Shown here: in pieces, positions 1 through 63,506 of the stretch
Position numbering within the stretch: the stretch's first letter is position 1
Layout: each line of letters starts with the position of its first letter
Source of the DNA: a virus
Taxonomy: Duplodnaviria > Caudoviricetes
DNA length: 64,000 nucleotides
IMG/VR virus record: IMGVR_UViG_3300032030_002802
Coordinates: 32,001-96,000 of that record
Reading direction: 5' to 3' (one strand)
Made by a program: the position numbers and the translations under genes
Notes under the pieces: model-generated
Database searches by the model: none
What the model was told of the DNA's origin: nothing
The model's input: the letters and a program-made list of their open reading frames with translations, nothing else

Positions 1-585
1 GGCGTTGGTTGCGGCCGCCGGCGCCCACCACCAGCTGTCCGGGATCCAGTTTGCCTGCGACGTCACGTACTTCTCCAGCGTTCCGTCCAGCGCGGCGCAG
101 AGTATCCACGCCTCGAGGCGCACGCGTGCCTCGCCCCGGGGCATCCCCTGCGCTATCTCGTCGTCCGTCATCTCGTCCACGTCCTTGGCCGGGAAGTTGC
201 TGGCCATGTACCTCTCGGCCCCGTTCGGGCGGGACAGGTAGTGCTCGCGGAACAGGTCGACCGGGTCCAGCCCCTGCTCGTACTCGGTGAGCCACGGCAG
301 TCCCGCGATGTCCACCTTCACGGTGGCCGTCTCCAGCGTCGGCACCTTGACCTCGCCGTTGCCTATTATGAACACATGCCCGACGAACGCGGAGTGCGCG
401 GTGAGGTCGAACTTCACCATGTCGGCGTGGCGGCCGTTCGTCCTGTACAGCTTCCCGTGGGTCTTGGCGACCTCCACGAGCCCGGAGTACACCGAGTCCA
501 CGTGGATTTTCCTCTGTTCCGGCTTCGGCTCGGCCATCTCGTCGGACAGCACGGCCGTGTCTTGCGGGTCTTGCTCTTCTTCCAT
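1..585 (-). CDS. Putative RT-partner protein (3' end runs off window; not in supplied ORF track)
   Basis: ATG at 585 preceded by AAAGGAG. Open for 195 codons to the window edge (MEEEQDPQD...LFREHYLSRPNGAERYMASNFPAKDVDEMTDDEIAQGMPRGEARVRLEAWILCAALDG...WWW). Lies directly downstream of array A. The partner role is inferred from context and recalled similarity. Confidence 0.7.
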   Translation of the reverse strand, partial: MEEEQDPQDTAVLSDEMAEPKPEQRKIHVDSVYSGLVEVAKTHGKLYRTNGRHADMVKFDLTAHSAFVGHVFIIGNGEVKVPTLETATVKVDIAGLPWLTEYEQGLDPVDLFREHYLSRPNGAERYMASNFPAKDVDEMTDDEIAQGMPRGEARVRLEAWILCAALDGTLEKYVTSQANWIPDSWWWAPAAATNA

Positions 586-614
586 TTCGGTTCTCCTTTG
601 GTTTGTCCCATTAG

Positions 615-1315
615 GTAGGCGGCCTGTTGGTTTGGCATTGGTCAGATTGAGACCTGGTAGAGGCCTCGGGCTGTGGGTAGACAGCTGGGCCGAAACCAGG
701 TCGAATGTCAGAGTCCGCCCTTCCTGGGTGTATGTCCGGCGTCCGGGTGTGTCCGGCGGGGTCTCCCGCGGAATGTGCGTCGTGTCGCAGATTGACAGCT
801 GAGAATGAGGCGACCGAGAGGATGGAGACCTCGACGGACGAGCGGTCGCCTTATTCCAGCTGAATGCAGTACGGGGTCCTCCCGCCGGCCTGTCTCGTCC
901 CGCACCGGTTTCCGGCCCTGTTTACGCAGCAGTGCGCAGATGCGCAGCGTGCTTGCCAGATCGGCGATCCTTCACGTGTCGGATCACCGATCTGGTGTGC
1001 ACGCCACGGTGGTCAGGCCGTCATGCCGGGAAGTCGTGCGCTTCCGCCGTTGTGGCTTCAGGAGCCCATAGATTGTGCGAGCCCCGTCCAGGGACATCGG
1101 ATGTGGATTGGCCCGGGCCATCCGATGTCACGGACAGTGCTCGTACGATGTACCTGGGCGTCATGCGCGTGTAGGCCGGGCTGCGCTTCGCCGCCTGTGT
1201 ACGGTCTATTGGTCAGATCCGGCTGGCCGAACCACGTGGTGTACCCGGCATGGGTAGACCGGGTGTACCACGTGGGGAGGCGCAGCCGTGTTCCAGCGGC
1301 ATCATGGCACAGTCT
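615..1315. ncRNA. Structured non-coding array A: 5 YAGAT-hairpin units
   Basis: YAGAT at 643, 788, 937, 1069, 1214 (spacing 145, 149, 132, 145). Each is followed by a long inverted repeat: 651-702, 796-862, 947-1004, 1075-1146, 1220-1288. No credible ORF. Confidence 0.85.
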
Positions 1316-1318
1316 CGC

Positions 1319-1603
1319 CTATTTCTTCCTGCCGGCCAGCGTCTTCCGCAGCAGCCGTTCGGCCCGCTGCATCGCGTATCTCCTCGCCCCTGGGCAGTTG
1401 CAGCCGCCGCTGAACCAGTGGCACTCGTACGGCGACACGAGCCCGGCCGAGTTCAGCGGCCTGTACCACTTGCACGCCTGGACGGTGAACCCGTCCTTCA
1501 CGCAGCCGTACGTCAGCCGCACGTCGTCCTCGCCGAACGCCTCGGGCGACACCTCAAGCGTCACCGTGCATAAGTTCATCCTGTTGTCGGTCGCCATCTC
1601 CAT
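1319..1603 (-). CDS. Hypothetical protein (94 aa)
   Basis: Start trimmed to MEMATDNRM, coupled to the stop of the upstream gene and preceded by AAAGGA. Confidence 0.6.
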   Translation of the reverse strand: MEMATDNRMNLCTVTLEVSPEAFGEDDVRLTYGCVKDGFTVQACKWYRPLNSAGLVSPYECHWFSGGCNCPGARRYAMQRAERLLRKTLAGRKK

Positions 1604-1791
1604 CAGTCCTTTCTCATGAGGTAGCAGCTGTGTATCGCGTCCTGCACCTTGGATATCGCCTGGTTCACGTACATGAATGCGGTAGCGGACCCCTCCACGC
1701 CGCATATGGACCGGCCTATCTCCTCCAGCCCGCGCTCTGCGCCGCGTAGGGACTCCTCGGCCCGCGCGACCGTGTCGCCGGTCTCGCTCAT
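1603..1791 (-). CDS. Small hypothetical helical protein (62 aa), translationally coupled to the RT
   Basis: ATGA overlap with the RT stop at 1788-1791; GGAGG upstream. Confidence 0.65.
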   Translation of the reverse strand: MSETGDTVARAEESLRGAERGLEEIGRSICGVEGSATAFMYVNQAISKVQDAIHSCYLMRKD

Positions 1792-3077
1792 GCGGTCACC
1801 TCCATCATCTCCGCCGTGTACACGCTCGGGCCGCACCGTGAGGCGCGGTACATCCGCATCAGGCTCTTGTAGCCCATCGTCCTGAGCATGTCGTCCGACG
1901 TCAGCGCCTTTGCCTTGCGGTGCTGGGTCTGCCGTCCGACGTACACGCCCTTGATGTGCTCCCTGATGTACTGGTCCAGCCTGCGCACCCGCGTCGGGTT
2001 GTCGATCACGCTGAAGAAGTAGCGCTCCCAGCCGAAGTTGCGCTGGTCGGCGTAGTGGCCGTCGCGCAGCAGCCAGTTGATCTTCCTGATGGCCTTGACC
2101 TGCTCCTCCCGGCTCTCCTTCGGGATGTACTTGTGCGGCCGGCAGATGCGCCGTATCTTGAGCTTGATGCGGTGGTAGCTCTCCTCGCTCATGTCGACCG
2201 TGCCGTTAGAGATCTCGCAGCCGAGGAACGTGAACGGGTGCGAGCTGTCGACCCGGGTGGTCTTCTTCTCGTTCAGCTTCAGGCCCTTCGCCGCCAGCAT
2301 CTCGCGCAGCGTGTCCAGCGCCTTGTCCGCGTCCGTCCCCAGCACCAGGATGTCGTCCGCGTACCGCAGGTACAGGACGTCCATGGCCGACAGCCGCTCG
2401 TCCACGTCCCTGAGGGCGAGGTTGGCGAGCAGGGTGCCGAGGGCGTTGCCCTGCCTGATCGCCATGTACCGCGGCTCCAGCTCGCCGTTGACGTACACGC
2501 GGTCGTCGTGGAAGTGCTTCCAGACGAGCGCGTCCACGGGGCTGCCGGTGTCCATGCTCTTCAGCGTGGCGTCCAGCGTCTCGCGGTTCACGCTGTCGAA
2601 GTACTTGCTGAGGTCGACCTTCCACCCACGGTCTCCGCGCCTCAGCCTTGGTATGAGGTCGCCGTGCAGGATCCGCTTCACGCCGATCCCGCGTTGGTAC
2701 GACCTGCACGACGGGTGTATCATCCCGCCGTACAGCCTGTTGTAGATCGCGCTCACGACACCGAGCACCAGGCCGTCCAGCGGCTGGCTCGGCGCGTACA
2801 GGGTGCGCACCTCCTTGAACTCCCTGTGCACCGCCTCCTTGTACGAGAGGTAGATGCCGGTAATCTTGTCGAGGTACAGGGTCTTCGGCGGCGACAGCGT
2901 GAAGCGCCCGTCGGCGATGGCCTGAACCAGCGCGGCGCGGCCGACCGTGTCGGCCACCGCCCCGAACGACTCCATGTCGATCCTGCGGCCCTTCTTCCTG
3001 CGGACGCGGTTCATCACGTCCTGCCAGATGGCCGGGTCGCACAGCATCTCCATTTTCTCGTCTTCGTCACTCATCAT
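1788..3077 (-). CDS. Reverse transcriptase, stand-alone unknown-group type (429 aa)
   Basis: RT motifs HPSCRSYQRG, WKVDLSKYFDSV, IRQGNALGTLLANL, YLRYADDILVLG, GLKLNEKKT and FTFLG. Start at 3077 (MMSDEDEK) with AGGAG at 3086-3090. Confidence 0.95.
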   Translation of the reverse strand: MMSDEDEKMEMLCDPAIWQDVMNRVRRKKGRRIDMESFGAVADTVGRAALVQAIADGRFTLSPPKTLYLDKITGIYLSYKEAVHREFKEVRTLYAPSQPLDGLVLGVVSAIYNRLYGGMIHPSCRSYQRGIGVKRILHGDLIPRLRRGDRGWKVDLSKYFDSVNRETLDATLKSMDTGSPVDALVWKHFHDDRVYVNGELEPRYMAIRQGNALGTLLANLALRDVDERLSAMDVLYLRYADDILVLGTDADKALDTLREMLAAKGLKLNEKKTTRVDSSHPFTFLGCEISNGTVDMSEESYHRIKLKIRRICRPHKYIPKESREEQVKAIRKINWLLRDGHYADQRNFGWERYFFSVIDNPTRVRRLDQYIREHIKGVYVGRQTQHRKAKALTSDDMLRTMGYKSLMRMYRASRCGPSVYTAEMMEVTA

Positions 3078-3099
3078 TGTCTGTTCTCCTTTTGTTGTT

Positions 3100-3965
3100 G
3101 TCCCGCCCTTCCGCGCCTGTGTGTGCGTTGTCGTGCAGATCGCCGTCGAGGCAGGATACCGTCGGGATCGGCATGGCCGATGCGACGGTATCTCGGGGGT
3201 CGACGGAGTGTCTCGGCGCGTCATGGGCGTACCCGCGTGCGCGCCTTCGGCATCGGCTATTCCGCCATGTGGCAGATCGGCCGCGGGCGAATCGGAGTCG
3301 CAGCGCCGGCGCGTGCTAGCGCGTGGGCGCAGCCATCCCCGTTTCGCCGCGGCTGTGCGTTGAATGCCTCCTGGCCCGCGTCCTGCATGTCCTGCGTGTC
3401 CGGCCGTGCGGCAGTGCGGCCTTCGGCACCCGTCCGTCAGGTGGCGGGTCAGATCCGTGTCGCATTAGGAGATGATGCGCATTCGTGCAGTCAGAGAATG
3501 CGCGTCATCTCCGTAACGACACAAAGGTGTCATGGTGTGCCTCGTGGCCTGCCCGGTCCTTCGGCGCGCGTCCCTTCGTCATAATGCAGATCGGAGGCAG
3601 CATTAAGCAGGTGATCACAGGGCGGTCGCAGTGTGATCACCTGCGTATGCTGCCGCGCGTGCAGGTGCGCCTCGTGGACTGGGTTCGGGGAATGGCCGGC
3701 GTCGGGGACGGTTCGTGCCATGTGGCTCAGATCGAACCCGGTGAAGGCGATCTTCGGCCAGGATGCTAGTCCTGGGCTAAGATCGCGTGAACCGGGTGAG
3801 TGGGCGGCCCCTCCTGCCGGCCTGGTCGGGCTGGGTTGGACGGCGCTTCCGCCGCCGTCTGCTGCTGGTCCCTTAGATTTGGCCGGATCCTTGGGCTCTG
3901 TCGGAGACGAACGGTCAGGTCGTATCCGTCGAGCTCCAAGGATCCGGGCGTGGATCGCGGCGTCG
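3100..3965. ncRNA. Structured non-coding array B: 6 YAGAT-hairpin units immediately upstream of the RT
   Basis: YAGAT at 3136, 3273, 3450, 3587, 3728, 3874. Hairpins at 3143-3206, 3280-3353, 3457-3522 (GGAGATGATGCGCATTC/GAATGCGCGTCATCTCC), 3596-3654 (GCAGGTGATCACA/TGTGATCACCTGC), 3736-3797 and 3883-3947 (CCGGATCCTTGG/CCAAGGATCCGG). Confidence 0.88.
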
Positions 3966-3995
3966 TGCGTCCGTGCGTCCGTGCATACGCCCGCG

Positions 3996-4652
3996 TCAGG
4001 TGTGCGTGGACCAGCTCCCGTACGGTGCGCGTTCGCCGCTTGGCAGGTAGTCGGCGTGGTAGATTATGCCGCCACACAGGCCGGGCCGGCGCGACATCGC
4101 CTCGCGCACGGCCGTGTCTGGCTGCGTTGCGGCCTTCATGGCCGTGTCGGCCTGGAACGTCCGCGAGACCCCCTCCTGTCCGAGCATGTCCGGGAGTTCG
4201 CTCTCGTCGAAGCCGTCCACCACCTCCTGCGTACGGCCGTCCCTGAAGATGTACCAGCACCGGTCGTAGATGTCCACGCGCTCGCGGGTGTACGGGTCGA
4301 TCCACTCCTCCCTGAAGAAGAACGAGTGCTGCGCCATGTCGGCGAACACGAACGTCTCGCGCACCGGCAGCCGGTCCTTCCAGTCGTGCGCCGTGTGGGT
4401 CTGCCCGTCCTGGAGGCGTATCTCCGACCCTTCCGGGAAGAACGGGCTCCTGTTGTCGATGGCGTCGGCGTTGGCCCTGTACCCGAAGCACGCGAGCAGC
4501 GTCCTCGCGGCCTGTCCGCGCTTTTCCTCCAGCTTTCTCAGCTCGGGGGCTTCGGTCAGTTTTGCGTTCCGGATGGCCGCGTCGAGCATCAGGTCCGCGT
4601 TTATCGCGAACTGCACGGCGGCGTGGAACTGCTCTGGGCATGTTATCGTCAT
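3996..4652 (-). CDS. Hypothetical protein, DUF4120-like
   Basis: FADMAQHSFFF and the C-terminal GGIIYH...WSTHT resemble DUF4120 phage proteins (recalled similarity). Confidence 0.55.
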   Translation of the reverse strand: MTITCPEQFHAAVQFAINADLMLDAAIRNAKLTEAPELRKLEEKRGQAARTLLACFGYRANADAIDNRSPFFPEGSEIRLQDGQTHTAHDWKDRLPVRETFVFADMAQHSFFFREEWIDPYTRERVDIYDRCWYIFRDGRTQEVVDGFDESELPDMLGQEGVSRTFQADTAMKAATQPDTAVREAMSRRPGLCGGIIYHADYLPSGERAPYGSWSTHT

Positions 4653-4653
4653 G

Positions 4654-4848
4654 TCAGTAGTCCGTTAGGGTTTGCGTCTCGTCGTCCGTCGCGTTCACCG
4701 GCTTCACGCCGATCAGCTCCAGCTTTGACAGGTCGGCGTTCTTGAACGCCTCCTCCGCCTGCTTGAACGCCTCCTGGGGCGTCTCGGCCAGGACGGCCAC
4801 GTCTATCCGCCCGTCAACGGCCAGGCTCACCGTGAATGTCTTGTTCAT
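4654..4848 (-). CDS. Small hypothetical protein (64 aa)
   Basis: MNKTFTVSLAVDG start with GAGGAG RBS and an A/C-rich leader. Confidence 0.7.
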   Translation of the reverse strand: MNKTFTVSLAVDGRIDVAVLAETPQEAFKQAEEAFKNADLSKLELIGVKPVNATDDETQTLTDY

Positions 4849-4879
4849 GTCTCTCCTCGGTTTTGTTGTTGTCGTGGGT

Positions 4880-5605
4880 TCCCGGTCCTGTTCATTCCGC
4901 CGTTCGTCAGATTCTGACGGCAGGTCGCCGCTTTGGTGGGCGCGGCCCTGGGGGAGCTCCGCAGCGCAGGTCACGGAGCGGAGGTGCTCCTCCTCGGGCC
5001 GCGCAGGGCGGCTGCCTGCCGGCTGATGGAATGCCGGTCATCCCTTTTGTTGTAGTTGTCTGGCTTCCGCGCTGTTGTTCTGTCTGTGTCGCAGATGGAG
5101 GATCAGCGAAGCGATGCCACGCCTCCTGAAGTCCCACGGAGGTGAGGCATCGCTGCCTGATCCGAATGCGGCGTGCGCGTACTGCCTTTTCCTGGTCGTG
5201 TTCGGCAGGCTCGGGCGGCTGTCTTTTCGCGGTTGGTCAGATCGCAAGGCAGGCTGAGGCTGAGCGGCGGTCGTAGCTAAACGATTTCGCGGCTCGCCGA
5301 GGCCTGCCTGGGGTGCATTCTCCGCCGCACGCCCGCCTCGGCTTTGTGCGCTTCTTTCGGGTTCCGCACCAGTGTCCTCTCGGTTAGGCAGATCGCGTCG
5401 TCGGCAGATCCAGAAGCCTCCGAGGTCGTCGGATGGCCTCTGGATCGCAGGGCGACGCACTGGATGGGTGCGTCTTCCCGGCGGCTTGGGCGCCTGTGTG
5501 TCGTTGATCCGCTAGATCGTCTGTCTTCTGAGTCGGTTCTCGAGACCTGCGGTCGCAGGTCGTGCGCGCGAATCGAGGAAGAAATACGGACGTGGAGCCA
5601 GCGCC
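4880..5605. ncRNA. Structured non-coding array C: 5 YAGAT-hairpin units
   Basis: YAGAT at 4908, 5092, 5238, 5389, 5513. Hairpins at 4918-5021, 5100-5163, 5247-5309, 5395-5458 and 5518-5592. Confidence 0.85.
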
Positions 5606-5646
5606 TCATGCCGCGTCGCGCGCCGTCACGTCGTCACGCCGCCGCG

Positions 5647-6306
5647 TCACCTGTGCAGGTCCATCACCACGTCGCCGGTCCCGAAGGCGCACTTGAACCC
5701 GCATCTCGGGCAGTCGCCGATGCACTTCGTCGCGTCCTTGGGCACGCGCCTGTCGGACCCGTCCTGCACCCAGCAGTTCCGCTTCACGTTCCTCTGGCGG
5801 GGCGGTGGCATGCGCGGCCACTGCGAGCGGAGCACGCGCAGGTTGTCCGGCAGCGAGGCGTGGTCGAGCCCGTCCATCTTCGAGTAGCCGTAGAACACGG
5901 TGCCGGGGTGGTCGCCGGCTATCCGCCTCCACATGTCCAGGTACTCCCGCGAGTAGAAGTCCCCAGCGACGTGGAGCCGCATCACCCGCGGCAGCGCCAT
6001 GTACAGGAACTTCCGGATGAGCAGCTCGGCGAGCGTCGGGTAGTTCTCCAGCATCCACAGGTTGTGGGTCCACATGTCCCACACGTTCGGGAACATGTCG
6101 CGTATCCGGTTGTTGTAGCAGCTCTTCGCGCAGTACCCGCGCAGCCTGGGGTTGCACGTCTTGACGTGGGGGATGCTCCACGACGGTATGTAGCCGATCT
6201 TGCGGTTGCCGGTGCCGATAGAGACGTACAGCTCGGGGCTGGCCGTGCCGACGATCTCTACGCCTTCCGCCCCGTCCACGTCCTCCGGGTCGATCCCCAC
6301 CTTCAT
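5647..6306 (-). CDS. Gp88-like Cys-rich protein (radical SAM-related phage family)
   Basis: GNRKIG..SWSIP..TC......C...CY, RLHVAGDFYS..Y...W, FYGYSK and C-terminal CxxxCxxC. Confidence 0.7.
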   Translation of the reverse strand: MKVGIDPEDVDGAEGVEIVGTASPELYVSIGTGNRKIGYIPSWSIPHVKTCNPRLRGYCAKSCYNNRIRDMFPNVWDMWTHNLWMLENYPTLAELLIRKFLYMALPRVMRLHVAGDFYSREYLDMWRRIAGDHPGTVFYGYSKMDGLDHASLPDNLRVLRSQWPRMPPPRQRNVKRNCWVQDGSDRRVPKDATKCIGDCPRCGFKCAFGTGDVVMDLHR

Positions 6307-6605
6307 GCCAGCACCTCCTTCCAGGTGTCCGTCACGTCGATGGTCCGCACGGTCTTGTACCGCTTCTCGTTCTCCCTGCGCGCCTTCAGCGTCTCCTGCC
6401 ACTCGTCGTCGCCGATCCCGTAGTATTCCTGCTCCTCGCCGAGGACGTCGAGCGCCGCGTCGAACAGGACGCAGTCCATGTAGGAGATCGCCTCCCCCCG
6501 CGCGCTCATGTCGACGAACCTCTTCTTGACCTGCCCGGCGGCCTCCCTGGACATCGTGTACTTGACCAGCGTGTCCATGGTCTCGATGTTCGACCCCGCG
6601 GTCAT
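6303..6605 (-). CDS. Hypothetical protein
   Basis: ORF with 4-nt overlaps to both neighbours. Confidence 0.65.
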   Translation of the reverse strand: MTAGSNIETMDTLVKYTMSREAAGQVKKRFVDMSARGEAISYMDCVLFDAALDVLGEEQEYYGIGDDEWQETLKARRENEKRYKTVRTIDVTDTWKEVLA

Positions 6606-6831
6606 CCGAACAGCTCCATCTGCACCAGCTTTGGGCGTTTCGCCGCTTCTTTGGCCAGCGTGGCCAGCGACTTGCCCGTCAGGGCCTTCAGCTGGGTGTC
6701 TATGGCCGCTCGGACGAAGTCGTCGATGGTCGAGCTGAACTGCACCCTGGCCGCGTGCTTGATGACCGTGTGCTCGACCATGGTGACCGCCGCACGCACG
6801 GTCGTCATGGGTTCTTTGCCTTCGGGTTCGC

Positions 6832-7455
6832 TCACAGCCTGTCCTCCAGCTCGATTACCTCGTACACGGTCCTGCCGCGCTTGTTCCTCTCGGCGGCGAT
6901 CTTGCACGCCTCGTCCTTGCGCTCCAGCAGCATGGCCTCGAACGGCGGCGAGTCCGTCACCGGCTTGCCTCCCACCAGCTTCAGGCCGACCTTGGGATAG
7001 GTCCTGCCGCAGAGGCCCGCGGGGCCGAGCCAGCCGACGGCGCGTCCGGACGGCGCTACGACGCGTATCGCGTAGCGCGTGACGTCCTTGGCCGTCACCG
7101 GGACCCGCTTGCCGTACACGACCTCGCCGGTCCGCACGTACACCCTGCCGTTCACGACCTCGATCTTCTCGAAGTCGTCGTCGTCCTCGCCGGACCGGTA
7201 TATCTCGCCGCTGAGCTTGATCCCCCGGGTCGACAGCAGCCGCTGGACGCGGAATGTGTCCTTGACGATGTCGTACCCGTGCATGTTGTAGCTGTCCGGC
7301 ACCACGTCGCCAACCTCGCCGCCGCAGTCCGCCGCATCGTCGCTGAGCGACGCGAGGACCCGCAGGTCGCACATGCCGTTTATGCGGTCGACGAGCTCCT
7401 GGGGTATCGGCTTGCTCGGGCTGAGCGAGCCCGAGAACGTTGAATTGTATCCCAT
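6832..7455 (-). CDS. Hypothetical phage protein
   Basis: AAGGAG RBS; MGYNSTFSGSL-type start. Confidence 0.7.
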   Translation of the reverse strand: MGYNSTFSGSLSPSKPIPQELVDRINGMCDLRVLASLSDDAADCGGEVGDVVPDSYNMHGYDIVKDTFRVQRLLSTRGIKLSGEIYRSGEDDDDFEKIEVVNGRVYVRTGEVVYGKRVPVTAKDVTRYAIRVVAPSGRAVGWLGPAGLCGRTYPKVGLKLVGGKPVTDSPPFEAMLLERKDEACKIAAERNKRGRTVYEVIELEDRL

Positions 7456-7464
7456 GTCGTCTCC

Positions 7465-7869
7465 TTAGAACGGGATGTCCTCCGGGTCGCCGGTCGCGAT
7501 GTTGGCGTCGGGCGGGTCTTCATGCGGGTCGGCTTCCTGCGGCTCGTTCCCGGCCCGTGGCGCCATGACGGCCCTGATGGCCGACATCGAGAGCACCCAC
7601 CGGCCGTTGCCGTTCCTGTCGGTGTACTTGTGCGACGTCAGCCGCGCGGTGCACGTGACGTGTCTTCCGAGGTCCAGCTGCTGGTCGAGGTCCGTCGCGT
7701 CGGTGCCGAACATCGTCATCGGCACGAACGCCTGCGCCCCGGCTTCGTCCTTCACGGACAGCACGACGTTGCGGAAGTACCCGTTGCCGTTCTTGTACGG
7801 CACCAGTTCGCCGATCTCCGCGATGTCGCCGGCCATCGGCGTCTCGGATATCCTGTACCTGTCGCTCAT
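7465..7869 (-). CDS. ssb: Single-stranded DNA-binding protein (OB fold)
   Basis: Beta-rich core with RLTSHKYTDRNGNGRW and an acidic tail ending EDIPF. Confidence 0.75.
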   Translation of the reverse strand: MSDRYRISETPMAGDIAEIGELVPYKNGNGYFRNVVLSVKDEAGAQAFVPMTMFGTDATDLDQQLDLGRHVTCTARLTSHKYTDRNGNGRWVLSMSAIRAVMAPRAGNEPQEADPHEDPPDANIATGDPEDIPF

Positions 7870-8249
7870 GGCCTGGTGTCCCCGTCGAATACCGGCTTGC
7901 CGTCGGACGCGACGTCGATGCCCCGCAGGCACTCCTTCGGCGGCATGAGCGACTTCGCGTTCTCGCGCTCCTTCTCGTCGGGGTCGGACTCCATCGTCGC
8001 GACGGCCTCGACGTATTCGACGAGGGGCTCGAACGGGATGTCGTACCCCGGCTTGTACTGGAAGTTAACCCGGTGCTGCCGGATCACCTTGGACAGCATG
8101 GGGCATGCGCCCCAGGCCTCAGCCGCCGCCTGGTCCATGTGGCCGTACAGCAGGAACTTGTACGAGGGGTACCCGTTGCGGATCTCCTCCTCGAGGACGG
8201 CCGCGGCGCCGAGGTGTTTCAGGACGCAGCCTAAGCATGGTTTTCTCAT
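7866..8249 (-). CDS. Hypothetical protein (MRKPCLGCVLKHL...)
   Basis: AGGAG RBS; ATGA coupling. Confidence 0.65.
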   Translation of the reverse strand: MRKPCLGCVLKHLGAAAVLEEEIRNGYPSYKFLLYGHMDQAAAEAWGACPMLSKVIRQHRVNFQYKPGYDIPFEPLVEYVEAVATMESDPDEKERENAKSLMPPKECLRGIDVASDGKPVFDGDTRP

Positions 8250-38501: not shown

Positions 38502-40031
38502 TCATGCGGTCCCCCCTCCGGCCTTCCCCGTCAGCAGCCCGAGCGTGGACAGGCACAGCGCCTTGGCCGTCATGGCCGGCACGCTGTTCCCGACCTGCTT
38601 GGTCTGCTCGGTCTTGGTCCCGCACAGCACGAACCCGTCCGGCAGTGAGTGCGCGCGGGCCAGCTCCTTCGGCTTCAGCATCCGCATGTAGATGTCGATG
38701 CGCCGCCCGTCCTCCAGGACGGGCAGGGCCATCATGTGCTGGTCCTTCAGCGTCACCGTGTTCAGCGGCTGCCCCGCCCCGCGTATGATCCCGCCGTTCG
38801 CGTTGTCCACCACGATCGGCCGGAACATACGCATGCACGTCCTCACGCACGCCGTCGGTATCGGCCTGCTCGCGGGCCGGCACGTCGACCCGCCGTGCTG
38901 CCCGAGGACGAGCGTCGCGAGCGAGAAGTGGTCGTGCGTCGACACGGTCCTCATCGGCCTGTCCGGCGCGTACGCCTTCCCGTGGTTCTGGTGGTCGCAC
39001 ACGAGCGAGCAGACGGCGTGGTGCCCCCCGCCTGCGGATATCGTGGTGAGCGGGTCGTCCGCCGGCGCCACGGTGGCGTTGTGCCGCAGCTTCGCGATGA
39101 ACGGCCTGGCCTGCACCAGCGCGTGGTGGTTGCCGCCCGCCGTCACGGTCGTGAGCGGGTCGTCAACGTCCTCGGTCGTCGCGCCGCGGTTGAGCTTGAC
39201 GATGAACGGCTTGAGCGGCCGCTCCTTCCCGCACGCCCTCACGAGCATGTCGGTCGTGATGTCCAGCCCCCAGTACTTCCGGGCCCCTGCGGCGAGCCGC
39301 GCGAGCGTCTTCTCCTTGAGCGGGCGGTCGCGGCCGAAGATCGACTTGCCGAGGTCCGACAGGTCGAGGCACTCTCCGGCGCCTCGCCACTGCTTCCTGC
39401 CCGGCACGTGGTCGCCGTACGTCGGCTCCGGGAAACGCGGCGGCGGGAGGCCCACCTTCGTCGCGATGAGGAAGAACCTCCTCCGCGTGGTCGGGTCCCC
39501 GTAGTCCGCGCAGTTGAGGATGCGCCACTCGACCTGGTAGCCGAGCGACTCGATCATCTTCACCCACGCGCGGAACGCCTCTCCCTTGCGCTCCTTTATC
39601 GGCTTGCCCTCCTCGTCCAGCGGGCCCCACTCCGTGAACTCCGGGACGTTCTCGACGACAAGCGTCAGCACGTTGCAGTCGGAGAGCCACGTGGTCACGT
39701 AGGCGGGCTGCGAGCGGAGCTGGTCGTTCCTCGGTCGCCCGCCCGCCGCCCGGCTGTGGTGCGTGCAGCTCGGGCTCGCCCACAGCATGTGCACGGTGCC
39801 GTGCACGAGCTGGCCCGGCACGGCCTCCTCTATCTTGCAGTCGAGGGTGGTCACGTCCGGGAAGTTCGTCCGCATGGTCTTCACCGCGATCGCCCAGTGG
39901 TTGATCGCGAGGCCCGTGTATGTCAGGCGCAGCTCCTTCACCGCGTCGTGCATCCCGCTCATGTTCCCGCCGCACCCGCAGAACAGGTCGACGAAGTTGA
40001 CCTCGTCCCCCGGCAACAGCAGCGGCATCAT
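38502..40031 (-). CDS. C5 cytosine DNA methyltransferase
   Basis: DLFCGCGG, ASPSC, VENVPEF, DYGDPTTRRRFF and QVGNSV. Confidence 0.92.
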   Translation of the reverse strand: MMPLLLPGDEVNFVDLFCGCGGNMSGMHDAVKELRLTYTGLAINHWAIAVKTMRTNFPDVTTLDCKIEEAVPGQLVHGTVHMLWASPSCTHHSRAAGGRPRNDQLRSQPAYVTTWLSDCNVLTLVVENVPEFTEWGPLDEEGKPIKERKGEAFRAWVKMIESLGYQVEWRILNCADYGDPTTRRRFFLIATKVGLPPPRFPEPTYGDHVPGRKQWRGAGECLDLSDLGKSIFGRDRPLKEKTLARLAAGARKYWGLDITTDMLVRACGKERPLKPFIVKLNRGATTEDVDDPLTTVTAGGNHHALVQARPFIAKLRHNATVAPADDPLTTISAGGGHHAVCSLVCDHQNHGKAYAPDRPMRTVSTHDHFSLATLVLGQHGGSTCRPASRPIPTACVRTCMRMFRPIVVDNANGGIIRGAGQPLNTVTLKDQHMMALPVLEDGRRIDIYMRMLKPKELARAHSLPDGFVLCGTKTEQTKQVGNSVPAMTAKALCLSTLGLLTGKAGGGTA

Positions 40032-40567
40032 CGTCCGTCCCCCTGGCCGGCGTCCGGGTCGGCGTCCGGGTCCGGCGGCTCGGAGTATGCGCACGTGTCG
40101 CAGAACACCCTGTCGGGGTACTGGACGTCGACGCACAGGCGGCCGCCGCAGACCGGGCACGGCCGCGTCAGGTAGTCGGTCATTTCGCACCGTCTCCCAG
40201 CAGGCGCTTTGCCGTCTCGCCCAGTCGTCCGGCCTTGGCCTCGGCCAGTATCCATTCGCCCCTCGCCTCGTCGACGAATTTCTGCAGCCCGGCCCACGTC
40301 CTGACCAGCCGCGCGCCGCGGTCGCGTCCAGTGATGGCCGGGACCACAACGAACATGAGCGAATGCTCGGCGTGGCGGAACGGCGGCGTGCGCATGGTCT
40401 TCACCCACGGCGGGCTGAAGTCGCCGACACGGCGGAACGACGGCCTGCCACGCTCGTCGGCCGACCCGACGCACCAGCGCGCCGCATCGCCGTGCACGTA
40501 GCACGCCTCGACCTTCCAGCCGTACCGCTGCAGCTCCTCCAGCAGCAGCCTGTGGCGCTTGTGGCGG

Positions 40568-45242: not shown

Positions 45243-45494
45243 CATTGTGTTGATATGTCACGCTACTGACACACTGCCTTGCGGCACTCATGGTTTCCCA
45301 TGAGATCGGACCATATCATCCTCTCGTGTGAGAGGGAGCACTTCGGACGCGCTTGCGCCCTACTCCCTTACGGGATGGCCTCTGAACCTTCCACTACTGT
45401 GGGTCGGCTGCTGATTCCCATGCCTTACGGTTTAGGGTTCCAGCAGTTCACTTTCTTATTCGACAGGGGTCGCCCCCTGAAGGAACAATTTCTT
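45243..45494 (-). ncRNA. Group I intron 1 (252 nt, no ORF)
   Basis: P AACTGCTGGAA, Q AATCAGCAG, R GTTCAGAGGCCAT, S GATGATATGGTCC. P1 GAAGAAU/GUUCCUUC has the U-G pair. P9 is CTCATGG-GAAA-CCATGAG. Ends in G. Confidence 0.9.
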
Positions 45495-47753
45495 ATTCTT
45501 CCCTGATATGCGCGGGCCGGCCTTGTACTGGGCGTAGGTTAGCTCGTTGCCGTGAGCGTCCCTGAACACCAGGTGCTTCTGCCAGGTCTTGAACTCCTTG
45601 TTCTCTGCATCTCCGCCGTACTGGGTGCGCACGAGCTCGACCACGTCGTCCTCCGTCCACTCCTTGTTGTTTTCATCAAACATGTGGTAGCCGAAGGCCT
45701 TGGCGGAGATGCTCGTGTGCATGTCTCGCCCCGGCGTCCTGAGCATGTCGATCATGTGCGGGTCGCCAGACAGGCTTGCTATTGTGAATAGCTCGGCCTG
45801 TTGAAAGTCGGCCTCCATCATGACCATTCCCGGCGGCGGCACGACGATGGTCCGGATCAGCGGCGGCACGTTGTCCTTCCCGAAGATCTCGGCCATGAAG
45901 CCTTCCGCCTTTTTTGGCCAGTTCTGCGCGTTGGGCGAGCTGGACTTGAACCTGCTCGTGGTGCTCAGCTGCGACATGTGGCTGTGCAGCCGCCCGTCGG
46001 CCCACAGCTGGGCCTCCAGGCCGCGGTCGGCGTTCTTCGCGTCCTTGTGCCGGAGCCACGTCTTGACCGGCTGCTCCACGCGCCTGTACTGCAGGAGCGT
46101 GCGGACGAGCGGATGCGCGTCGCCCAGGATCTCCAGCGTCTGCTTGTCCGTCCCCGGCGACTCGTCGATGTCCTCGTCGAGCCCCCAGTTGCCGACCGCC
46201 TCCGCCCAGTCCTTCCCGGCCGTGGTCTTCACCGGCGCGAGCCCGAGCTTCCTGAACAGCAGCTCGCGCACCTGCGCCGACGAGCCGGGGTTGAAGTCCG
46301 GCATCCCGACGTTGGCGGCGCCGACCACGATCTGCGACAGCAGCTCGGCCTTCTTGGCCTGGAACGCGTCGATCAGCTCGTCGAGGCGCGCGCGGTCGAC
46401 CGGGAGCCCGGTGCGCTCTATCTCGTATATGACCCGCTGCGTGTTGAGCGTCGTCTGCAGCATCGACGGGTACTCGCCCCCGACGCCGCGCGGCTTCAGG
46501 TAGCCGATCCTCTCCAGCATCGGGAGCTGCGCGGCCATGATGTACCGCAGGCAGTCCACGTCCGCCGCGCCGTACGGCAGGAGTATGGAGTCGGGCACGT
46601 TGCCGAAGCCCAGCTTGCACTCCTTCCCGTGGCGCTTGACCCAGCACTCCAGCTCCGAGCAGTAGCGTCCGTAGGGTGCGTACTTCATCGCCGCCTCCTC
46701 CAGGCCGAACGGGCCGTCCTCGCAGAGGAGGTACTCGCCGAGCATCGTGTCGTACACGACGCGGGGGCGGATGTCGATGCCCTCCTCCAGCAGCCACTCG
46801 CCGTCCGATATGACGTTGTGCCCGACTATGCCGCAGCGCGGGTCCTCCAGCCACCGCTTCACGGCCGCGATCACGGCCTTCGTGTCGGGGTGCGACGGGA
46901 CCCCTCCGGCCTCGTGCAGCTTGACGATGGCGACCCGGCCCTTCGCGTACCCGATCTGTATGGTGCGTATGTACCTGCCCGGGTCGAGCCAGTTGCGGCC
47001 GTCCCATTCGCAGTCCAGGCACAGCAGCCCGTCAGCGACCCTCCGGCCGCCGACCATCGCCATCACCTGCTCGTGCACGAAGTCGACGTCCTCCGGGGTC
47101 GTCAGCACGTCGTACACAGGCCGGTGCGAGGCGTACGTCGCCTCCAGGTCCTCGCCGTCCGCGATGCGCTTCACGAGCCTGAGCTCGCGCACGGCCGAAT
47201 GCACGAGGACGTGCTGCGGGATGTCCTGCAGCTGGAGCCGGTCCTTGTACCCCTCGCCGCCGTTCATCATGACCTGGGCGAGGTTGTACGTCGGGAACAG
47301 CGTCCTGCCCTCCGCCGCGACCGGCTCGCCCCGGCAGCACGCGAACGGGCGCTCGCGGGCGTCCGCCACGGCGGCCCAGGCGTCCGCGCCGAACGCGACG
47401 ACGACCTTCGGGTTAACAGCCTCGATCTCCTCGCGCAGCATAGTCGCGCACAGGGCCTTGTCCCCGCTCGACGGCTTCCTGCCCGCACCGAACGGGAACT
47501 TCACGGCGTACGTGTAGTAGCACCGGCTCGGGCTGATGTCCGCGAGCCTAAGCAGCCACTGCAGGCACCGGCCGACGCGGTCGCCCAGCGGCCTGTTCGT
47601 CCGCTTGATCTCGTCCCCGGGCCAGCTGTCCACGAACACGATGTCCGCGTTCGGGCTTCCGACGCCGTTGTACCACCGCTTCCCAGCGATGTCGCGGTGC
47701 GGCTCGTCGAAGCGGTGGACCTCCGGCGCGGGCTGCTTGTCAGTCTTCGCCAT
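45495..47753 (-). CDS. polA: DNA polymerase family A, exon 1 (UDG-like domain, 3'-5' exonuclease, polymerase)
   Basis: GVGSPNADIVFV..EEIEAVNPKVVVAFG (UDG family 4-like). LDCEW, GHNVISD, YDTML and YGAADVD (exonuclease). RFKSSSPNAQN and motif A EADFQQAE. Confidence 0.93.
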
Positions 47754-51367: not shown

Positions 51368-53445
51368 CGTCGCCTCCCCTGCCTGCGCGGAGCCTCGCGA
51401 GCTCTCCCCTTAGCATCTCGCACCTGTCGCGGAGGTCGGCGATCGCGATCTTCGCGAAGATCACCCGCAGCATCACGAGGGTCACGAGCGACCACATCAC
51501 GGTGGCGGCGACGTTGTCGGCGCAGCCCGAGACGAGCATTCCGAGCGAGGCTATGAGCGCGGCCGCGGCGAGGGCGATCCAGTCCAGCATGTTGGCGATG
51601 GCTCGTATCGTATCCATGTCAGTCCTCCCCCCGCGGCGGGTGTTTGAGGCAGCCGGGCGTCTCGCAGCGCTCGCACCACTTCCGCCTCGGCTCTGCCGGG
51701 TCCGGGCGCAGGTCCACTCCGTACTTCGCCTTGAAGCCGAGTGCGATGACCTCCTTGATCGTGTCGTTGTTGAGCCGACTGCACAGCTCCTTCTCGTCGT
51801 ACTCGTACTCCGGGTCCATCAGCTCGTAGACCTCGTCGTCCTGGTTCTCCGCCGCGTCCACCAGCGCGGCGAACAGTATGCGCGCGAACTCGATTTCGAC
51901 CTGCCTGGTCAGTTTCTTTGCCATTGCCTCTTCTCCTCTAGTTTCTCCTCTCGACTATCCGCCACGCGCGGATCCCGTCCGGGCCGGCCACGTTCCGCAG
52001 CTCGTGCGTCCGCATGAACTCGTCGAACCGCATGAGGCAGCTCTTCATGTCGTTCCCGGCAGCGCACCCCCGGTCGGCGTCCCACCTGGGGCAGTGGGCC
52101 GGGCAGTAGAGCTCGCTCATGACCGTCGTCACCGCGTCGCGGAACGTGTAAGTGTCCATCCCGCCGTCGTCGGGGTCGACGTAGCGCCAGAGGGCGGCCG
52201 ACAGCCTCCCGCAGTGCTCGTGCGCCTTCCAGGTGTACACCCGCCCGTCGAACTTGTTGCTCGCCCGCACGTACCTGTCCCCGCGGTGTATGACGTGCCC
52301 GCAGTAGTCGCATACGTGCGGCTTGCGGGCACGCAGGGTCGACGACCGGATCGTCTCGACCATCACTTCCTCCCGCGCGAGAGGACCTCGTTCGCGTCCC
52401 TGAGCCACTCGTCGCAGTGCTCGACGAGCGTCCCGGGCGCGCTTATTCCGTCCTTCTGCGCAGCGAGATTGGCCATCACGGTGCGCAGCGTCGAGATCAT
52501 CGGCTGCGCCTTCCACACCAGGTCAATTGCCTTCACCGGTTTCATTTTCCGCGGCTCCCTTCCTTTGCGGCTTTCGCGGCCTTGGGCTTTACTGGTTTGT
52601 AGATCTTCCGCAGTTTGTATTTCTTGAGCAAGTACTGTAGCCTGCGACACGCCAGGCCCATCCACCACGCGACGGAATCGTCGCACTGGCAGAGCAAGTT
52701 CGTATTCGCCTCCTCCAGCATTCCGTAGACCTCGAACAGGTCAGCCCGCATGTCCACGCCATCGTATGCCACGTCCTTGTCCGGCGTGGAGCAGACGGTC
52801 AGGGCCAGCATCACGCATAGATCGAGTCCTTCGTCAATTGCTTGCCACCACGAGCTCCGCTTGCTATCATCGTATTTGAGGGTCTTTTCAGTCCCAGTGA
52901 TGCCGTTCCGCTGCATTACTTCGTTCAGCGTCATCAGCACGTTGGCCGGGGCGTAGAACCTGCCCTCGCGCAGCACCCGCTTGGCACGGTTTCTAGTGGA
53001 GATGCCGATCTTCATCCTCTGTTCCTCCTTCTGGCCTTCTTGGCCGCCTTGTTGCGTCTGTTCCGGCGTTCCTGCGTCTTGCGCTTGTGCATGTCCCGGT
53101 TTCTCTGCCCGTGCTTCCAGGGCGAGTCCATCCCGAAGGCGTCCGCCACCATCTCCATCGGCGTGCCGCGCCAGTCGGGCGGTGCGGATGCCTGCGAGAC
53201 CGGCATGTCCTGGAACTGGCTGATGTCCAGCGACGGGCAGGGGCCGGGGTCGCATGGCTCCATCGCTATGGTCGGCTCTGTGTGCATGGCCTACCTCCTG
53301 TTGCGTTTGCGGGCTTCCTTGGCCGCGTCGCGCCTTGCTTTCGCTCGTGCGCGGCGTCCGCGCTCCAGGCGTGCGGTTTCCGGGTCAACGTACGGCTGCG
53401 GCGTTCTGTGCACCAGGCCAGTGCGCCCGTCGACGTAGAAGTCGG

Positions 53446-60750: not shown

Positions 60751-62934
60751 CTAGTTGAGGTCGATCACCGAGTCCATGTGCGGGATAACCGCACGCTCGT
60801 GCGTCGCCATCACGACCTGCGCGTTCATGTTGCGCGCGAGGTCCTTCGTCTTGGTCAGCAGCACGCCGAACCGGTCGACGTTGCTGTCGTCCAGGTACGC
60901 GGTCGGCTCGTCCAGTGACAGCAGCCCCAGCTTGCCGGCGAACATCGTGTAGATCGCGAGGCGGAACGCCACGGCCAGCTGCACCCGCTCGCCTCCGGAC
61001 AGCACGTCCGTTCCGGGCGGGTCCTCCGGCCTGTCGCGGCCGTCGGTGAACTGGACCCTGAATCCGAGCTGCTCCGTATCCGGTATCACTATGAACGGCG
61101 CCGTGAAGTTCCCGAGGAAGCGGTTGACGTCGTCCGTCAGCGCCTCCAGGGTCTGCGTCACGAGCACGCGCGGCCCGTTCGTGTAGTGGAACCAGTCCTT
61201 CACGTGCTCGACGACCTGCAGCCGCTTCGCGAGCTCGTCCTGCTCGGCCTGCGCCTTCCGCAGCGACTCGACGGTCTGCGCCATCGCGGCGATCGTGTTC
61301 GCCACCTCGTCGCGCGTGGCCGTGCTGCGCGTCACCGCCATCCGGAGCTCGGTGTGGCGGGCGCGGCGCCTGTCGGCCTCGGCCACGACCATCTCCATGG
61401 CGGAGCGGGCCTGTGACCAGTCCGCCGCGGCTTCCCTGCCGCAGAGCTTGACCGCCTCGGCCTCAGCCTCGTCGCGCCTTGCCTGCGCGGCCAGCAGGGC
61501 CTTGTCGGCCACCTGCGACCTTAGTTCCGCGTCGTGCACGGCCTGCTTGTGGCCGGTCGCCGCCGCGTCGTACGCGGCCTGGGCGGCCAGCTGCGCCTGC
61601 ACTTCCCCGAGGACACGCTCGACGGTCGCCTTGTCGACCTTCGGCGCCTCCAGGTTGGCCAGCGCGGCACGCTCCGCCTCGACGCGGGCGTTCAGCCTCG
61701 CGGACTCGCGGCCCCAGTTGTCGAGCGCCATGCGCCTGGCCGCCAGCTGCGAGCTGAGCGCGCTGGCCTTGCCGGCGAGGCCGGTCTCGCGGAGCCTCAG
61801 CGACGCGAGCTCGTCGCGCAGGCGCCGGGCCATGCCGGCGTCGAGCACCTTGCCGCACACGGGGCAGACGGACTCGTCGCCGTTGAGCACGCCGACGGAC
61901 TTGGCGCGGATGGCTATCTCCGAGCGCACCGTCGCAAGCTCGGCCGTGGCCGCGTCCAGCTCGGCGGACGCCCTGTCGACGTCCTCCTGCGTGCACGGCG
62001 GCTGTGGCAGCGCGGACAGGTTCCGCTGCGCGTCGGCCAGCCTGGACTGCCCGAGCTCGAGGGCGTGGATCTTGCGGAGCTCGTCCCTGAGGACGGCCTC
62101 CTGGCCAGTCAGCATCGCGCGGTCGTGGCCGGGGTCCGGGCCGAGGGCCGCCGCGGCTTGCCTGGCCTGCGCCTCGCCCTCCGCCGCCGCCCTGACGGCC
62201 TGCTCGCAGCTGACCACGGCCTCGCGCGCCTGCAGCACGGCGGACACCGCCGCTATCGCCCGCGACAGGTTGGCCGTGCGGGAGTCGTCGACCTCGCCGA
62301 ACTCGGCCAGGTCCCGCTCCGCCGCGCGCACCGCGTCGTCCAGCTCCGCCTTCCGGGCCTCCAGCTCGCCGAGCTTCTTCACGGCGTCGGTCAGCTGGAT
62401 GTCGTAGTTGAGCGGCTTGGTCGCGCCGTACAGCCAGTCGGTGAGGTTCTTGTGGATCTTGGCCGCGTCGATCCCGCGCAGCTTCTGGAACGCGACCTCG
62501 CGGTCCCGCTTGTCGGTCTTCGCCGAGATGATGGCGTCCACCTCCGTCTGCCGGACGAAGACCGACTGCTTGAGCAGGTCCCTGTCGACGTGCAGGCGGG
62601 TCTCCAGCTCCTTCGCCACGTTCGTTATGCCGGACGTGGTGACGCCGTCGTACTCGAGCGTCACCTTGTTGGAGGACACGGAGCGCTCGATGCGCCCGGG
62701 CTTCCCGTCCTGCTCGAACTCCAGCGTGACATGGCCCTCCTTCGCGCCCCAGTGGAGGAGTTCGGCCTTGTTCTTGCCGGGCTGCTCGCCGGTCAGGACG
62801 AACTGGAGGGCGCCGAGGAAGTTCGACTTCCCGACGCCGTTGTGCCCCACCACCGCGATGAGGTTTCCGACTACCGTGATCTCCCTGTGCTCGTGCTGGC
62901 AGTAGTTCACCAGCTCGATTTTCTTCAGGATCAT
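60751..62934 (-). CDS. sbcC: SbcC/Rad50-like SMC ATPase
   Basis: GHNGVGKS, coiled coils, CPVC hook, LSGGE, LDEPT and ATH. Confidence 0.93.
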   Translation of the reverse strand: MILKKIELVNYCQHEHREITVVGNLIAVVGHNGVGKSNFLGALQFVLTGEQPGKNKAELLHWGAKEGHVTLEFEQDGKPGRIERSVSSNKVTLEYDGVTTSGITNVAKELETRLHVDRDLLKQSVFVRQTEVDAIISAKTDKRDREVAFQKLRGIDAAKIHKNLTDWLYGATKPLNYDIQLTDAVKKLGELEARKAELDDAVRAAERDLAEFGEVDDSRTANLSRAIAAVSAVLQAREAVVSCEQAVRAAAEGEAQARQAAAALGPDPGHDRAMLTGQEAVLRDELRKIHALELGQSRLADAQRNLSALPQPPCTQEDVDRASAELDAATAELATVRSEIAIRAKSVGVLNGDESVCPVCGKVLDAGMARRLRDELASLRLRETGLAGKASALSSQLAARRMALDNWGRESARLNARVEAERAALANLEAPKVDKATVERVLGEVQAQLAAQAAYDAAATGHKQAVHDAELRSQVADKALLAAQARRDEAEAEAVKLCGREAAADWSQARSAMEMVVAEADRRRARHTELRMAVTRSTATRDEVANTIAAMAQTVESLRKAQAEQDELAKRLQVVEHVKDWFHYTNGPRVLVTQTLEALTDDVNRFLGNFTAPFIVIPDTEQLGFRVQFTDGRDRPEDPPGTDVLSGGERVQLAVAFRLAIYTMFAGKLGLLSLDEPTAYLDDSNVDRFGVLLTKTKDLARNMNAQVVMATHERAVIPHMDSVIDLN

Positions 62935-63506
62935 TCCTGGTCTCCCCTGTTCCTCGACAGGACGCCGGTGCCCCAGGCGTCGCACTTCTTGTCTTCGCCG
63001 ATGACGGCGATGGTCACGGAGACGGTCCAGGGGGCGCGGGCGAACTTGGGGTCGGCGCGCTTCACGACCTTCGCGCCCTCGACGCGGGGCTGGACCTGGT
63101 AGCGGCGCGGGTCGGGGAACTGCGTCGCGCGGTACCAGAAGACCGACGGGTTGTTCAGGAAGTCCTTCGCGTCCGCCTCGGCCAGCGCCTTCACCGGGAA
63201 CGACCCCAGGTTGAGCGTGATCTCGTGCGGGGTCAGGCGCACGGAAGCGGGGGTGCGGTGGCGCGTGACGGCCGGGGCCTCGGCTGGCTTCTCGGGCGCT
63301 GCGGGCTTCTCGGCCTTCGCCGGCTTGGCCGGGGCCTTGGGCTTGGGGGCCTTCTTCGCTGGCGCGGGCGCGTCTGCGGCCTCGAGGCGCATGGCGTAGG
63401 CGTGCGCCAGCCCCTTGAGCAGCGTGGTGGCCTGCTTGAATTCCTCGAGCGCCCGCTCCAGGTGTTCCTGCGCGAGCTGCGCGGTGTTGGGTTTATTCTT
63501 GCTCAT
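62931..63506 (-). CDS. Hypothetical protein with Lys/Ala/Pro linker
   Basis: Coupled ORF between sbcD and sbcC. Confidence 0.65.
   Translation of the reverse strand: MSKNKPNTAQLAQEHLERALEEFKQATTLLKGLAHAYAMRLEAADAPAPAKKAPKPKAPAKPAKAEKPAAPEKPAEAPAVTRHRTPASVRLTPHEITLNLGSFPVKALAEADAKDFLNNPSVFWYRATQFPDPRRYQVQPRVEGAKVVKRADPKFARAPWTVSVTIAVIGEDKKCDAWGTGVLSRNRGDQE

Follow-up and report, generated by a model that had tools for sequence, protein, structure and literature searches.

The DNA examined here, hereafter the window, is a stretch of 64,000 nucleotides comprising bases 32001–96000 of a 199,078-bp virus record in IMG/VR (IMGVR_UViG_3300032030_002802), with a GC content of about 65%. At the low-coordinate end of the window and just beyond it, arrays of imperfect hairpins are interleaved with the gene for a reverse transcriptase (RT) of the UG27 class, with genes for homologues of the small and the large UG27 accessory protein (sORF and bORF), and with four small open reading frames (ORFs). 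The genes around the arrays are all encoded by the minus strand, and this coding strand has more A than T. Every hairpin bears the pentamer YAGAT at its foot. Herein, we describe this motif, the hairpin units to which it belongs, and the evidence that it probably marks the site at which the RT begins to copy each hairpin. Coordinates refer to the window unless the genome is named.

Hairpin units and the motif at their foot

Inverted repeats were located without reference to the motif and, separately, by folding. YAGAT was found on the plus strand at the foot of all 16 hairpin units in the window (643–5517), as CAGAT in 13 units and as TAGAT in three. In every unit, the motif lay 0–5 nt from the low-coordinate side of an imperfect hairpin of 52–100 nt. 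A minus-strand transcript, running in the same direction as the RT gene, carries AUCUR, the complement of YAGAT, and each unit therefore reads hairpin-N0-5-AUCUR in the RT sense.

The units, all on the minus strand, begin with the array that adjoins the sORF-like gene. Unit 1 of this array spans 643–702, with CAGAT at 643–647 (AUCUG on the minus-strand RNA) and a hairpin at ~651–702. Moving up the coordinates, further units are found at 788–862 (CAGAT 788–792, central hairpin ~796–862), 937–1005 (CAGAT 937–941, central hairpin ~944–1005), 1069–1147 (TAGAT 1069–1073, central hairpin ~1074–1147) and 1214–1288 (CAGAT 1214–1218, central hairpin ~1220–1288). The unit directly upstream of the RT start codon occupies 3136–3206 (CAGAT 3136–3140, central hairpin ~3143–3206). 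It is followed by units at 3273–3355 (CAGAT 3273–3277, central hairpin ~3278–3355), 3450–3522 (CAGAT 3450–3454, central hairpin ~3457–3522), 3587–3654 (CAGAT 3587–3591, central hairpin ~3596–3654), 3728–3797 (CAGAT 3728–3732, central hairpin ~3736–3797) and 3874–3947 (TAGAT 3874–3878, central hairpin ~3883–3947). The unit at 4908–5020 has an unusually long hairpin (CAGAT 4908–4912, central hairpin ~4918–5020). The remaining units lie at 5092–5163 (CAGAT 5092–5096, central hairpin ~5100–5163), 5238–5309 (CAGAT 5238–5242, central hairpin ~5247–5309), 5389–5458 (CAGAT 5389–5393, central hairpin ~5395–5458) and 5513–5588 (TAGAT 5513–5517, central hairpin ~5518–5588), the last of these being the first in the direction of transcription. 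Two of the units have a second CAGAT on the plus strand (957 and 5405), which falls within the stem and is not a foot motif.

Four further units with YAGAT at the foot were found to the left of the window, downstream of the bORF-like gene, at genome positions 29219, 29913, 30063 and 30207 (window −2781, −2087, −1937 and −1793). With these, the locus holds 20 units; they form five arrays, among which the three system genes and the four small ORFs are dispersed. The units are spaced 132–184 nt apart, mostly ~145 nt, and their hairpins all differ in sequence.

The frequency of YAGAT was compared with the expectation from a first-order Markov simulation of 2,000 runs. The 2,452 nt of non-coding sequence contained 18 copies on the plus strand and one on the minus strand, while the simulation gave a mean of 2.7 and a maximum of 10. 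Expressed as a density, this is 7.3 per kb of non-coding sequence, about tenfold the 0.69 per kb per strand found over the remainder of the 199-kb genome. Six more plus-strand copies were located within coding sequence (2143, 2743, 2851, 3025, 4060 and 4267). The association of YAGAT with the hairpins is confirmed as real and highly non-random.

Read in the RT sense, a unit of ~145 nt is composed of (A/C)GA, the 5' arm of a basal stem (P1) of 5–7 nt, about 10 nt ending in CAYUC, and the central hairpin; then, after 0–5 nt, come AUCUR, about 14 nt, ACAG, the 3' arm of P1, and GAAS. In this order, an asymmetric internal loop adjoins the foot of the central hairpin, with a 3' strand of ~25 nt and a 5' strand of ~8–12 nt, and AUCUR stands at the start of the longer, 3' strand. 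P1, the stem enclosing the motif, covaries: 69.6% of the cells were paired versus 48.4% after shuffling, the covariation score was 0.404 versus 0.156, and none of 500 shuffles reached the real value. When the register of the arms was slid, no more than 41% of the cells were paired in any register. The G.U pairs of P1 are formed on the RT-sense (minus-strand) RNA.

In all units, for instance the minus-strand unit at 3104–3245, conserved letters border P1, namely (A/C)GA before its 5' arm and GAA after its 3' arm. These flanks could form tandem sheared G.A pairs, and hence a kink-turn-like base of the unit.

Two phage contigs with close RT homologues, L003 (85% identical) and L004 (72%), are syntenic with the locus and carry the same arrays. 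All 26 of their units, read in the RT sense, have the hairpin followed by ATCTR at 0–5 nt from its 3' foot. When 16 units of the window, 19 of L003 and seven of L004 were aligned with MAFFT (42 units in all), exactly four columns were invariant, and these were the A, T, C and T of ATCTR. Weaker conserved boxes were also present, namely CAYUC at the 5' foot and ACAG-stem-GAAS ~20 nt downstream. Since ATCT supplies the sole invariant columns, the preliminary description of the locus was right to call YAGAT the only sequence common to all units. Its account of the motif on the low-coordinate side of all 16 hairpins, 13 times as CAGAT and three times as TAGAT, agrees with the positions and folds obtained here, and the positional enrichment that it had proposed to examine is borne out by the 18 plus-strand matches where the simulation expected 2.7.

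The same contrast between motif and surroundings was seen in 19 orthologous pairs of units from this genome and L003. ATCT was identical in all 19 pairs, and the fifth letter switched between A and G, whereas loop positions +6 to +20 were only 11–53% identical. Within the central stems of these pairs, we counted 29 two-sided compensatory pair changes. The unit at 3273 (3273–3382) has no orthologue in L003, which has 19 units where this genome has 20; by comparison of the two sequences, this is a single-unit gain or loss between relatives. A related strain in run X4 has several substitutions within the hairpin of the same unit, and an 8-nt insertion (CGTGCGTC) at position 3963, within a short tandem repeat just past the 3874 unit.

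The reverse transcriptase, its neighbours and their occurrence

The RT gene (1788–3074, minus strand) encodes a protein of 428 aa with an intact YADD catalytic motif and a match to Pfam RVT_1 (2.6e-19). Among 77 RT models, the best match was PADLOC RT_UG27 (3.4e-66, model positions 2–358 of 420), followed by UG26 (2.9e-47) and UG17 (1.1e-32). Against the NCBIfam model retron_St85_RT, the protein scored 53 bits, where the cutoff is 235.

Two proteins encoded after the RT were traced to accessory proteins of UG27 systems by chains of blastp and tblastn matches, which reach the proteins after the arrays in three loci of intermediate relatives (L005, L006 and L008) and in Bacteroides, Alistipes and Blautia loci. 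The first is a sORF homologue of 315 aa on the minus strand (genome 31638–32585), of which the window holds the N-terminal 195 aa (1–585). It matches its counterparts of 162 aa in L008 (7e-20) and of 169 aa in L005 (7e-19); its direct match to the ORF after the array in a Bacteroides locus (L012) is 1e-4, and that of the L008 protein to the same ORF is 1e-15. The second, a bORF homologue of ~430 aa, comes after the sORF homologue and lies outside the window (genome 30334 to ~31630). It matches the 356-aa protein of L008 (2e-24) and, directly, a Blautia locus (L027, 2.6e-13); for the L008 protein in turn, matches of 1e-11 to 1e-17 were obtained in Bacteroides, Alistipes and related Bacteroidota loci. 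As the 315-aa and ~430-aa proteins are homologous to the two ORFs found after the RT and array in every related locus fetched, we regard them as the UG27 small and large accessory proteins.

Four small ORFs, all on the minus strand, complete the set. Two lie between arrays: one of 218 aa (3996–4652), conserved in L003 and L004, and one of 64 aa (4654–4848), conserved in L003. The other two follow the RT: one of 62 aa (1603–1791) and one of 96 aa (1319–1609), the latter conserved in L003. None of the four had a family match or a counterpart in canonical UG27 loci, and they may be accessory proteins specific to this clade.

Farther along the window, on the minus strand, lies a replication module (45456–47753, 38502–40349 and 60751–62985). 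Among its products are a family A DNA polymerase that bears a fused N-terminal domain resembling uracil-DNA glycosylase, a C-5 cytosine methylase, and an SMC/RecF-like ATPase.

Searches for relatives of the phage returned little. Positions 1–8000 had no nucleotide match among cultured phages, the DNA polymerase had only protein matches below 26% identity, and no exact RT peptide was found in IMG/VR; the RT relatives used here were obtained from the protein database. A profile scan of bacterial genomes with the RT recovered only Bacteroidota and Bacillota loci, with identities of up to 47%, and no high-GC host. An Rfam scan of positions 1–6000 with E-values up to 1 gave no retron or other family, only chance matches to pre-miRNA-like hairpins. 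When the hairpins were compared with the rest of the phage genome, no match exceeded the shuffled control.

A position weight matrix (PWM) for the 3' flank, built from the units of L003 and L004, recovered 18 of the 20 units. It also scored three minus-strand sites highly, at 52604, 49776 and 41226, which we rejected as units because they have no hairpin and lie at gene ends beside a sequence resembling a ribosome-binding site. ATCTR at these sites precedes a stretch rich in A and C and a ribosome-binding sequence of the GGAAG type, and part of the GGAAGC box may resemble a leader sequence.

The stretch is present in public sheep and bovine gut sequencing runs, including two metatranscriptome libraries from one sample. 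In these two sheep-gut libraries, a contig covers the array upstream of the RT (2888–4316) with a word depth of ~13, compared with 1–9 elsewhere in the 9-kb region; as these are contigs only, the depth is not evidence of an expression level. Contigs carry neither strand nor ends, and DNA carry-over is possible; therefore, no inference on expression or on complementary DNA (cDNA) was drawn from them.

The conserved AUC of UG27 units and the reading of AUCUR

UG27 was defined as a phage-borne class 2 UG/Abi RT with two partner proteins of unknown function and a putative noncoding RNA (ncRNA) (Mestre et al. 2022, PMC9226505). A recent study (Minerva preprint, 24 Sept 2026, doi 10.64898/2026.09.22.753630) described the UG27 intergenic regions as arrays of ~150-nt units, which differ in sequence and share a common structure, the central stem being bracketed by an asymmetric internal loop in which short conserved motifs lie. 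On the 3' side the published motif is AUC-N7-UANAG, and on the 5' side it is UUYA; most published units have a pseudoknot, which is absent from a class of ~135 nt. Five cloned systems, taken from distant branches of the RT tree, produced RT-dependent single-stranded DNA (ssDNA) of 50–100 nt that mapped to the central hairpins, and the cDNA boundary coincided with AUC. According to the same preprint, reverse transcription starts at the conserved AUC of AUCNNNNNNNUANAG and ends past UUYA, across the hairpin, and the RT and both accessory proteins are all required. UG27 arrays are a phage system described only recently, and what is known of them is their biochemical output.

Next, we asked what other UG27 units have at the place occupied by AUCUR in the window. 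The published motif was recovered in Bacteroides and Alistipes loci (L010, L012, L017 and L019), where the conserved columns were AUC, UA-AG and a 5' box containing UUYA, and where the 3' side reads AUC-R-N6-UAAAG. In loci with RTs nearer to the one described here, the units read AUCUAAA (L008, RT 45% identical), AUCCUAAA (L005, 41%) and AUCAUAAA...UAGAG (L006, 35%). Across the canonical and intermediate loci, the unit period was 140–190 nt, and AUC lay 0–5 nt after the 3' foot of a hairpin of 60–90 nt, a few poorly folded units excepted. Since AUC holds the same position in every clade examined, it is a family-wide element. The U-R that follows it is specific to the clade of this phage and, in the form U-A, is also found in L008.

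These observations suggest that AUCUR is the form taken in this clade by the AUC conserved in UG27 ncRNA units. On this reading, the UG27 RT, acting with the small and large accessory proteins, would begin cDNA synthesis at AUC, copy the central hairpin, and halt at its 5' foot, so that each unit would yield one short ssDNA hairpin. The predicted products at this locus would be ~60–105 nt long and would begin near the 5'-GAT of the plus-strand sequence. We consider it quite probable, from the combined analysis, that AUCUR is this lineage's version of the UG27 AUC start signal for hairpin copying. The motif, its position and conservation, the basal stem, the class of the RT and the homologues of both accessory proteins are established at the locus itself; the start at AUC and the need for all three proteins come from the preprint on other UG27 systems, and we infer that both hold in this clade too. 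The preliminary description had placed AUCUR on a minus-strand transcript just 3' of each hairpin, as the arrangement in all units confirms, and had proposed it as a site of RT recognition or initiation, with cDNA 5' ends at or near AGAT. Homology to the published UG27 start at AUC lends support to that proposal. The start site as such is not a new finding, because the preprint had already mapped it.

Several points weigh against this reading. No unit of the locus matches ATC-N7-TANAG, and the UANAG box is absent; the 5' foot is CAYUC, with UUCA in only some units. A model built from 24 canonical units, which had no consensus base pairs and so scored sequence only, gave no match in the window or in L003–L008 and matched only another Bacteroidaceae locus, in agreement with the remark in the preprint that some clades escape its own models. 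Because the canonical model misses these units, the case for homology of the RNA is made by architecture, by position and by the three letters AUC. The RT shares only 25–30% identity with the Bacteroidota and Blautia RTs. The public reads over the locus are assembled contigs that carry no strand or end information, and the mechanism is drawn from a single preprint.

A different role for the motif in reverse transcription can also be considered. AUCUR may be a determinant in the internal loop by which the RT or an accessory protein recognizes the unit, rather than the first templated position, and synthesis would then start elsewhere in the loop or at a primer supplied by another part of the unit. 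The preprint does not describe the priming mechanism, which leaves room for such a scheme, and at this locus the conserved block is longer (AUCU) and the 3' strand of the loop is ~10 nt longer than the canonical one, so that the geometry may differ. However, the agreement of the cDNA boundary with AUC held in five systems from across the RT tree, and at this locus AUC keeps its place with respect to the foot of the hairpin. Recognition without initiation thus appears improbable.

Slightly less probable still is that AUCUR is mainly an RNA-processing site, at which a host or phage ribonuclease cuts the array transcript into units, its conservation being unrelated to cDNA initiation. Ribonuclease sites often have the features seen here: the motif occurs once per unit, is single-stranded and stands beside a stable hairpin. 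But a cut at this point would fall within the unit enclosed by P1 and would part the hairpin from the covarying return strand of that stem, and the letters conserved across the family are the ones mapped as the cDNA start. The contig-only read data give no ends in support of cutting. RNA processing was the alternative named in the preliminary description, and it may be a second role of the motif.

The least likely alternative, one to which we attach very little weight, is that the motif acts on DNA or on the plus strand, as a −10-like promoter (TAGATT) for antisense hairpin RNAs, as a GATC-type methylation site, or as part of a terminator: TAGATT does fit TANNNT, but C is the first letter of 13 of the 16 motifs, the scan for sigma-70-like promoters and intrinsic terminators placed none at a unit, only 11 of the 16 contain GATC, with the base before the A not conserved, and the G.U pairs of P1 belong to the minus-strand RNA.

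The folds themselves do show a bias toward the plus strand, which was found to be the more stable of the two strands in 18 of 19 units. In addition, the transition mismatches in the central stems of 46 units (window, L003 and L004) were more often A.C in the RNA sense, equivalent to G.T in the cDNA sense, than G.U (83 versus 43). Both biases speak for a signal acting on the plus strand, but they have two other explanations, the folding of the cDNA, which has the plus-strand sequence, or the A-over-T skew of the coding strand, and the G.T bias vanishes when substitutions between orthologues are counted (22 versus 16). Since the cDNA has the plus-strand sequence, the excess of G.T may reflect selection on the DNA hairpin, or it may be due to strand composition.

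In conclusion, the locus is, on the evidence of its genes and units, a divergent member of the known UG27 system in a phage with 65% GC, and not a new kind of system. A broader proposal can be put forward only tentatively, and we think it rather doubtful as a whole. It states that the units form a distinct structural class of UG27 ncRNA (AUCUR, ACAG-P1'-GAAS, no UANAG box, and extra small ORFs) missed by the published covariance models; that the family's initiation signal comes down to AUC, set at a constant distance from the foot of the hairpin; and that the excess of G.T over A.C on the cDNA-sense strand reflects selection on how the DNA product folds, in addition to selection on the RNA template.

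Comparison with known systems

DRT2 (UG2) and DRT9 (UG28) share with the system described here an RT of class 2 UG/Abi and the use of a structured ncRNA nearby as template. These two differ from it in having a single ncRNA, in making long concatemeric or homopolymeric cDNA, and in serving host defence, whereas here the template is an array, the predicted products are short, and the carrier is a phage.

Retrons resemble the system in the predicted product. The retron RT makes a short ssDNA hairpin by copying the hairpin-forming segment of a structured ncRNA encoded beside it, as is predicted here, and a closing stem flanks the template in both. However, a retron has one msr-msd template per RT, while this locus has 20. 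Retron synthesis is primed from the 2'-OH of a conserved branching G in the msr, for which no equivalent was identified here, and the RT scores far better against the UG27 model than against retron models.

With UG27 systems, the locus has the following in common. A phage encodes the class 2 UG/Abi RT and, along with it, one small and one large accessory protein; arrays of ~150-nt units differ in sequence and share their structure; a central hairpin sits within a basal stem and an asymmetric internal loop; and an invariant AUC lies 0–5 nt 3' of the central hairpin. Single-unit gain or loss between close relatives, and hairpins that have no match elsewhere in the phage genome, are found both here and in the arrays of the preprint. 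Published units are ~135–167 nt long, and those described here, at ~145 nt, fall between the published classes.

The differences concern the remaining motifs, the layout and the carrier. Where the published units have AUC-N7-UANAG, the units of this locus have AUCUR, with ACAG-P1'-GAAS ~20 nt downstream in place of UANAG, and CAYUC stands at the 5' foot where the published box is UUYA-N4-5. The 20 units are divided among five arrays, and the three genes of the system are interspersed with these arrays, as are four extra small ORFs. In published work the hosts are Bacteroidota, Bacillota, Pseudomonadota and Spirochaetota, while the carrier here is a 199-kb phage of 65% GC from sheep and bovine gut metagenomes. 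This lineage keeps the three proteins, the unit architecture and AUC, and has replaced the other conserved boxes. The comparison points to AUC, at 0–5 nt from the hairpin foot, as the unchangeable part of the start signal, and the locus provides a natural set of variants for what the RT complex reads.

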